Source: a virus
Lineage: Duplodnaviria; Heunggongvirae; Uroviricota; Caudoviricetes
Reading direction: 5' to 3' (one strand)
Virus record (IMG/VR): IMGVR_UViG_2671180695_000012
Length of the DNA: 5,816 nt
Shown: in pieces, positions 2,286-2,325 of the stretch
Position numbering within the stretch: position 1 is the stretch's first letter
Layout of the letters: every line of letters starts with the position of its first letter
Translations under genes and position numbers: made by a program
The notes under the pieces: model-generated
Databases searched by the model: none
Seen by the model: the letters and a program-made list of their open reading frames with translations, nothing else
Told to the model about the DNA's origin: nothing

Positions 2286-2325
2286 AACCCCGGACTGTTC
2301 CCCCAGCCGGGGTTTTACTTTTATT
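2286..2325 (+). terminator. strong GC hairpin with a T-rich tail; intrinsic terminator on the plus strand, possibly bidirectional
   Basis: Stem AACCCCGG (2286-2293) pairs with CCGGGGTT (2307-2314), extendable by CTG/CAG inner pairs, and is followed by TTTTACTTTTATT on the plus strand. On the minus strand the same hairpin is followed by the weaker GCAUUUUG. Confidence 0.45.

Follow-up and report, generated by a model that had tools for sequence, protein, structure and literature searches.

The window, meaning the whole 5,816-nucleotide stretch analyzed here, covers the late-gene start of a lambdoid Escherichia coli prophage, with all credible genes on the minus strand (Table 1). In the direction of transcription, a gene for a Q-family late antiterminator is followed by a tRNA gene cluster, a lysis cassette that ends with the spanin genes Rz and Rz1, and the start of a small-terminase-like gene, and four small open reading frames (ORFs) lie between the endolysin gene R and Rz. 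A hairpin separates R from these small ORFs. An earlier interpretation made without database searches (the sequence-only reading) had placed the hairpin within a Q-dependent late operon, with R on one side and Rz/Rz1 on the other, which is correct, and had called this the middle of the lysis cassette; more exactly, the hairpin stands where an endolysin module gives way to a variable slot for small accessory genes. Over positions 1700 to 2940, the window was 100% identical to several human E. coli isolates (e.g., strain S1-IND-01-A, NZ_CP145657.1, around 532.7 kb).

Table 1. Features of the window in minus-strand transcription order (d, terminator score; nT, tail value)
Feature	Position	Strand	Evidence and remarks
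DUF968 protein		-	First in minus-strand order
RusA		-	Second, after DUF968 and before Q
Q-family late antiterminator	4274..5095	-	Pfam Antiterm PF03589, E = 3e-55; RefSeq: antitermination protein
tR'-like terminator	4174..4193	-	80 nt downstream of Q; AACCCGCCGCCGAGCGGGTT then TTTTATTGCG; d = +18
tRNA gene cluster	4130-3821	-	
Second sense-strand intrinsic terminator	3598..3613	-	Upstream of the holin gene; GCCCGCTTTTGCGGGC then TTTTCTTTTC; d = +36
S21-type holin (pinholin)	3313-3528	-	
YdfR	2994-3308	-	
R21/RrrQ-type endolysin R, 177 aa	2405..2938	-	Pfam Phage_lysozyme, E = 6e-25; RefSeq: rrrQ lysozyme
Conserved R 3' untranslated region (UTR), about 90 nt	2315..2404	-	Ends at the hairpin; three near-invariant blocks, 55 unique sequences
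T-rich tail of the hairpin	2315..2325	+	TTACTTTTATT; nT = 3.99; read on the minus strand, the A-tract AAUAAAAGUAA ahead of the hairpin
Hairpin arms	2286-2293 and 2307-2314		AACCCCGG / CCGGGGTT; perfect 8-bp stem, 6 G-C pairs
Hairpin inner 3-bp helix	2295-2297 with 2304-2306		Across a bulged A at 2294
Hairpin loop	2298-2303		
Degenerate sense-strand tail	2271..2285	-	GCAUUUUGACAAAUC after CCGGGGUU; nT = 2.25; where most relatives have a U-tract
Small ORF 1, membrane peptide, 50 aa from first ATG	2101..2253	-	phrog_12997, E = 6e-7
Small ORF 2, membrane peptide, 47 aa	1971..2114	-	phrog_1115, E = 4e-19; RefSeq: hypothetical protein
Small ORF 3, 49 aa, putative coding	1787..1936	-	ORF list; zero PHROG/Pfam matches
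Small ORF 4, 28 aa, ORF 2 paralogue	1704..1790	-	phrog_4493, E = 2e-6; RefSeq-annotated
Rz (i-spanin)	1235..1702	-	Pfam Phage_lysis, E = 3e-49; phrog_13, E = 9e-72
Rz1 (o-spanin), embedded in Rz	1297-1482	-	Reading frame from ORF list
Truncated Rha-like ORF, 120 aa	851-1213	-	Directly after Rz
Start of DUF1441 small-terminase-like gene		-	Last in minus-strand order, after the truncated Rha-like ORF

From its N-terminal sequence and general background knowledge, we take the endolysin to be of the SAR type. ARAGORN called a fourth tRNA (Lys, anticodon ttt; 3977-4053, minus strand) between the Thr and Met/Ile tRNA genes; it was absent from the Rfam matches and from the RefSeq annotation of an identical sequence, and the call may represent a degenerate tRNA. 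The ORF at 851-1213 matched Rha/antirepressor-like regulators in their C-terminal part only (ORF11CD3 domain; phrog_129 positions 69 to 175 of 273) and appears to be a truncated gene.

Small ORFs between the hairpin and Rz

The four tandem ORFs (1704-2253; 28 to 50 aa) abut or overlap Rz and each other, and look like an uncharacterized accessory component of lysis cassettes. The conserved core of ORF 1 comprises 34 aa, from the ATG at 2205-2203, and a homologue on another contig (L159; 81% nucleotide identity) begins MTPKAANIAG. ORF 4 ends in IRWW, with its stop codon one base ahead of the Rz start codon. ORFs 2 and 4 belong to one family (PHROGs 1115, 3246, and 4493), a further member of which was seen between an M15 endolysin and a 60-aa lipoprotein gene (L161:10751-11108). 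The four-ORF module of the window is rare: the sequence just downstream of the hairpin was present in 36 of 5,426 complete E. coli genomes and in none of the records of the phage collection.

Between the hairpin and the first small ORF, the minus strand carries perfect copies of TTGACA (2280-2275) and TATAAT (2261-2256) 13 bp apart, which is too close for a normal sigma-70 promoter. Relatives in which the hairpin follows an M15 endolysin (the M15 context) had GATAAT as the second hexamer, and one relative had TTGATA as the first. The layout is not that of a moron, in which inserted genes have their own promoter upstream and a terminator downstream, as the hairpin precedes the small ORFs in the reading direction.

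Structure and chance expectation

On the plus strand, positions 2286 to 2325 read AACCCCGG A CTG TTCCCC CAG CCGGGGTT TTACTTTTATT. The GC-rich 8-bp stem noted by the sequence-only reading, extendable by 3 bp across a bulge, was borne out by the sequence itself, by RNA folding, and by shuffling. In a 60-nt context, the plus-strand RNA folded at -18.2 kcal/mol (z = -3.3; 2 of 200 shuffles equally stable) and the minus-strand RNA at -22.3 kcal/mol (z = -3.9; 0 of 200 shuffles equally stable). The 25-nt core alone gave -15.0 kcal/mol on the plus strand and -16.5 kcal/mol on the minus strand, which qualifies it as a stable GC-rich stem-loop.

Sites were also searched for with our own script under strict rules (a perfect stem of ≥8 bp, ≥6 of them G-C; a loop of 3 to 15 nt; and ≥7 T among the 11 nt that follow), and exactly one was found in the window, the hairpin at 2286-2314. 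When both strands were searched after dinucleotide-preserving shuffling, 2 of 1,000 shuffles yielded a stem with a T-tail, and 134 of 1,000 a stem without one. A built-in terminator scan left the plus-strand site uncalled, because its rules exclude a bulge or a 13-nt loop, and returned only a weak alternative pairing on the minus strand. The hairpin is real and non-random.

Related hairpins in other prophages

Positions 1700 to 2940 were compared with phage genomes by megablast; H-19B and many Stx phages matched across R, with the match ending at 2308, inside the 5' arm of the hairpin. About 100 nt after the R stop codon were conserved in H-19B, PhiR12_1, vB_EcoS-783R2, and GER2, in all of which the segment ended AAAACCCCG-loop-CGGGGTTTTGTGTTT; in mRNA sense, this end reads AAAA(A)CCCCG-TTTGTTGGCAGCAAG-CGGGGTTTTGTGTTT, a 9-bp stem with a good sense U-tract. 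This canonical, R-linked hairpin was present at nearly all of 120 loci found by scanning viral contigs for the A-rich motif just upstream of the hairpin, and three unrelated modules were found downstream of it.

The exact 23-nt core of the window hairpin (CCCGGCTGGGGGAACAGTCCGGG) was present in 53 viral contigs, with 56 copies tabulated in all. Five unrelated contexts preceded it, each ending in an A-tract (an M15 endolysin in 36 copies and the R 3' UTR in 14), and five contexts followed it, four of them T-rich. A T-tract came after the core in 39 of the 56 copies (e.g., GGGGTTTTTAGTTTTCACG), and the GCATTTTGA tail or close variants in the remaining 17. In strain A19 (one of the 36 genomes), an M15 metallopeptidase endolysin directly precedes this hairpin and its downstream small ORFs, the intervening sequence reading CGATAA GTAAAACAAAACCCCGGCTGGGGGAACAGTCCGGGGTTGCATTTTGAC; only AAGTAAAAC and the hairpin are common to the window and the M15 context. 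At one M15-type locus, all neighboring genes were codirectional: those for two holins and the endolysin come before the hairpin, and those for a 57-aa membrane peptide and a 60-aa lipoprotein after it. Since the core is flanked by unrelated sequence in so many contexts, the conserved unit is about 35 to 40 nt long and consists of A-tract, hairpin, and U-tract. The unit is located directly 3' of endolysin genes of two unrelated types.

The element is not universal. Among phage records, 319 matched the R 3' UTR and 54 matched the UTR together with the hairpin; in many Stx phages with the UTR, including Sakai Sp10, an antirepressor module takes the place of the hairpin. As most Stx phages carry the UTR without it, the hairpin is dispensable. 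K-12, a strain with public maps of RNA 3' ends, lacks the element: in Qin, rrrQ overlaps rzpQ by 4 nt, which leaves no intergenic hairpin.

Two viral contigs (L057:2304-2443 and L094) carried a canonical-hairpin variant whose interior, ATTGCACCAACAGT, resembles the reverse complement (TTTGCAACCAACAAA) of the interior of another variant (TTTGTTGGTTGCAAA), and it looks as if the loop has been inverted between the stem arms there. The 3' half of the window hairpin (AACAGTCCGGGG) resembles this flipped form.

Strand asymmetry

Copies were compared with a terminator score (d) of the d'Aubenton-Carafa type, which adds hairpin energy per nucleotide to a weighted T-tail; the formula is uncalibrated here, so that only relative values are trustworthy. 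The window copy scored d = +13.5 on the plus (antisense) strand and d = -12.2 on the minus (sense, late-mRNA) strand. The sequence-only reading had thus recognized correctly both the look of a plus-strand intrinsic terminator, with its TTACTTTTATT tail, and the weakness of the minus-strand tail (GCATTTTGACAAATC after CCGGGGTT). The sequence directly 3' of the stem reads UUUUACUUUUAUU, a U-rich tract, on the plus strand and UUGCAUUUUG on the minus strand, the sole gene-bearing strand (nT for each in Table 1). With the sense tail below threshold, the ancestral function of the window copy may already be lost here.

Relatives scored differently. The same core in its M15-context form, with a TTTTTAGTTTT tail, reached +25.8 in sense and +23.0 in antisense, the sense value being that of the window core followed by TTTTTAGTTTTCACG. 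The canonical R-linked form scored +14 to +28 in sense and about 0 to +2 in antisense, with folding energies of about -15 kcal/mol and about -9 to -10 kcal/mol, respectively; it is biased to the sense strand because its stem contains a U·G pair, the antisense counterpart of which is a C·A mismatch. The window copy therefore scores on one strand only and is not a bidirectional terminator, whereas some relatives score on both strands. Sense d was above zero in 144 of 162 collected copies, and most of the failures were 16 copies with the GCATTT-type tail of the window.

In an alignment of 55 unique sequences (alignment A1), stem pair 104:118 was U·G in 47, U-A in 2, A-U in 2, and G-C in 2, with its neighbors remaining paired; the remaining stem pairs were invariant or altered on one side only. 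This covariation, at one stem position and in few lineages, is modest but real evidence for maintenance of an RNA structure, which in most copies would be that of the late mRNA.

Candidate plus-strand transcripts

The sequence-only reading had suggested that the hairpin may stop an antisense or convergent regulatory RNA, and had noted that no credible plus-strand gene ends upstream of it. The second statement held. Plus-strand ORFs ending near or crossing the hairpin (1809-2174, 1891-2163, 2248-2457, and 2282-2479) had zero PHROG matches, by which they were ruled out as real genes, whereas three of the four small ORFs on the minus strand match a PHROG family. No convergent gene was found in the window or in any context examined. 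A promoter scan with a threshold of 9 of 12 matches and a normal spacer returned nothing on the plus strand anywhere in the window, and nothing near the hairpin on either strand; under relaxed rules, the best plus-strand sites matched at 8 to 9 of 12 positions, and nearly all had a spacer of 15 or 19 nt, away from the optimum.

Searches for known RNAs were similarly negative. Against Rfam 15, three tRNAs alone reached the gathering score, and positions 2250 to 2410 had no match even at an E value of ≤1; permissive matches elsewhere were tRNAs, antisense artifacts, and two weak chance matches (including Trp_leader at the tR' region). Among prophage small RNAs (sRNAs), AgvB, AsxR, and PasA/C were rejected as the RNA of the hairpin, as they map between Q and the holin gene, upstream of holin; HnrS/EcOnc10-12, as in Sakai Sp9, Sp10, and Sp12 they are located just after Rz and encoded on the other strand; and EcOnc52, as it maps to the 3' end of ECs_1088. 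A sequence search found no HnrS homologue in the window. HnrS (EcOnc11), a published Hfq-binding sRNA, lies at L127:6320-6368 in Sakai Sp10 (about 1946819-1946867 of the record). It starts from the strand opposite to Rz, about 75 nt beyond that gene, and is directed back at the lysis genes. An sRNA gene convergent with the late transcript can therefore be present at the distal end of a cassette of this kind, although the window lacks one.

These results bear on the possibility that the hairpin ends a plus-strand regulatory RNA, either one resembling the antitoxin of a type I toxin and running over the 5' region of the small ORFs, or one transcribed from beyond Rz. Several observations point that way: the window copy scores as a terminator on the plus strand only; the A-tract, which is the plus-strand U-tail, is kept in every core context, including an M15 context in which the sense tail has been lost (L160); hydrophobic peptides of 28 to 50 aa are encoded immediately upstream on that strand; and opposite-strand sRNA genes near lysis cassettes have a precedent in HnrS, just after Rz in Sakai Sp10. 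Of the features of a type I toxin-antitoxin locus, the window has small membrane ORFs and a plus-strand terminator, with promoter candidates at 8 to 9 of 12 matches, and PHROG and Pfam searches returned no toxin family for the small ORFs. Neither a plus-strand promoter at 9 of 12 matches with a normal spacer, nor an HnrS homologue, nor an Rfam match accompanies the hairpin. The sequence conserved together with the hairpin lies on its R side, that is, downstream of the 3' end of such an RNA and untranscribed, and a plus-strand RNA ending at the hairpin would therefore not contain it. Strong one-way terminators, too, usually have an A-tract upstream of the hairpin, which further weakens this explanation. 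The family stands 3' of endolysin genes and mostly scores in the sense direction, and the plus-strand T-tail is the complement of the A-tract that precedes every member; the purpose proposed by the sequence-only reading is thus not supported, and on balance termination of a dedicated plus-strand RNA seems unlikely. Its most specific form, in which the sense U-tract was lost and the plus-strand terminator kept because an antisense RNA over the 5' part of the small ORFs ends there and silences them in the lysogen, is very improbable; if true, such silencing of lysis-cassette peptides would represent a novel form of regulation within the lysis genes of a phage.

The R 3' untranslated region

The R 3' UTR followed R in 2,134 of 5,426 complete E. 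coli genomes, at most 12 times per genome, and homology of these copies to the window ended at the 5' arm of the hairpin. A scan of contigs with an 18-mer from the UTR gave 30 matches, one of which (Escherichia sp.) looked genuine, judged by organism names alone. Mean pairwise identity over all pairs was 0.905 in the UTR, against 0.80 at R third codon positions; between the window and the others, the values were 0.87 and 0.64, respectively. A conserved ORF, a covarying structure, and an Rfam match were sought in the UTR, and none was found. A leader-peptide attenuator was considered on account of an 8-codon mini-ORF (ATG...GGATAA) that looked conserved in five sequences, and was ruled out, as many relatives carry AAAAATAAGG there and a different frame. 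RNAalifold predicted two tiny invariant hairpins with zero covariation, and a conserved RNA structure was likewise set aside.

The hairpin might instead be a processing or stability element of the late mRNA. It would then either shield the holin-endolysin message from 3' exonucleases or, after read-through, have its helix lengthened by pairing of the A-tract with the U-tract to give an RNase III site, as at lambda sib. The minus-strand fold adds five outer pairs (AAAGU with AUUUU) to give a long interrupted helix at -22.3 kcal/mol; the adjoining UTR is more conserved than synonymous sites; and the hairpin has been retained where the sense U-tract has decayed still further (L067 variant). Against this, covariation outside the terminator stem is zero, the extended helix is short and rich in A-U pairs, the hairpin is absent from most Stx phages, and the observations made here fit a plain terminator equally; a role in mRNA stability or processing is quite unlikely.

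A probable terminator at the endolysin boundary

Little credence is given to the idea that the element survives chiefly as a short shared linker for recombination between related prophages, any effect of the window copy on transcription being incidental: a 35- to 40-nt core with unrelated flanks (at least five upstream and at least five downstream contexts combined), homology with Stx phages that stops at 2308, and an M15 context that has so little in common with the window would all suit such a linker, but a functional terminator kept at a gene boundary predicts a short shared joint sequence equally, and the sense-only G·U preference and compensatory changes point to selection on RNA structure.

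The hairpin is probably a copy of a conserved endolysin-distal intrinsic terminator within the late operon, read through by Q-modified polymerase. The element, an A-tract followed by a GC-rich hairpin of 9 to 11 bp and a U-tract, closes the endolysin module of lambdoid E. coli prophages on its 3' side; the variable slot for small accessory genes follows directly, and then the spanin genes. It would act in most relatives as a sense-strand or two-way terminator inside the late operon. Polymerase unmodified by Q, with possible origins in the tRNA region, at moron promoters, or at spurious starts, would stop at the element, and polymerase that comes from pR' with the Q modification would pass it, just as it would need to pass the terminators at 4193-4174 and 3613-3598. 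These two further sense terminators, upstream in the same late transcript, and the Q gene provide supporting context, and the read-through steps follow from established lambdoid Q antitermination.

In the lineage of the window, the sense U-tract would have decayed or been replaced (now UUGCAUUUUG) along with the arrival of the rare four-ORF module. In a sub-variant (L067), the tract has decayed further, to GGGGGTGCATTTGAC, which suggests little selection on sense termination in this lineage. Loss of the sense U-tract, with the hairpin and the upstream A-tract kept, would explain why the window copy resembles a terminator on the plus strand alone. The plus-strand tail would have no dedicated role; it probably survives as the complement of the A-tract, which here is also part of the strongly conserved R 3' UTR. 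The antisense orientation of the hairpin is most likely the leftover of a decayed ordinary terminator, rather than a sign of special antisense control.

In practice, automated calls of prophage terminators can mislead on direction once a U-tract has decayed. The endolysin-distal hairpin is a handy marker of the point where shuffling joins endolysin modules to small accessory lysis genes. The conserved R 3' UTR and the tiny membrane peptides encoded ahead of the spanin genes may merit more attention than the hairpin itself.

Comparison with known systems

Prophage sRNAs (AgvB, AsxR, PasA/C/D, and HnrS) also end at intrinsic terminators in lambdoid late regions, some of them convergent with the late transcript; unlike these, the window has no sequence match to them, and their map positions differ. 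Like bidirectional terminators of E. coli, the core in the M15 context scores on both strands; unlike them, it is accompanied by no convergent gene, the canonical R-linked form is biased to the sense strand, and the window copy is biased to the antisense strand. In Stx phages, the Q-dependent late-transcript terminator tR' lies directly downstream of pR' and gives the abundant Hfq-binding RNA StxS (PMC7547250). The window equivalent of tR' is the site at 4193-4174; the hairpin, in contrast, lies about 1.9 kb further down the transcript, where there is no known sRNA.

A further parallel is with the predicted intra-operon terminators of phages L and P22, which share with the hairpin family a GC-rich stem-loop with a U-tract, a position among late genes served by a single promoter, and a mosaic boundary (PMC8022706). 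Earlier work describes terminators inside lambdoid late operons and gives their roles as unknown, proposing partial termination or the stopping of transcripts begun without antitermination (PMC8022706). As with those terminators, read-through by a Q-type-modified polymerase is presumed here, and the window has a Q gene. The present finding adds one well-documented example to these known, unexplained terminators inside Q-dependent late operons, and in itself matters little. Unlike the terminators of phages L and P22, the hairpins described here form a family found specifically after the endolysin gene, of which the window copy has lost its sense U-tract.
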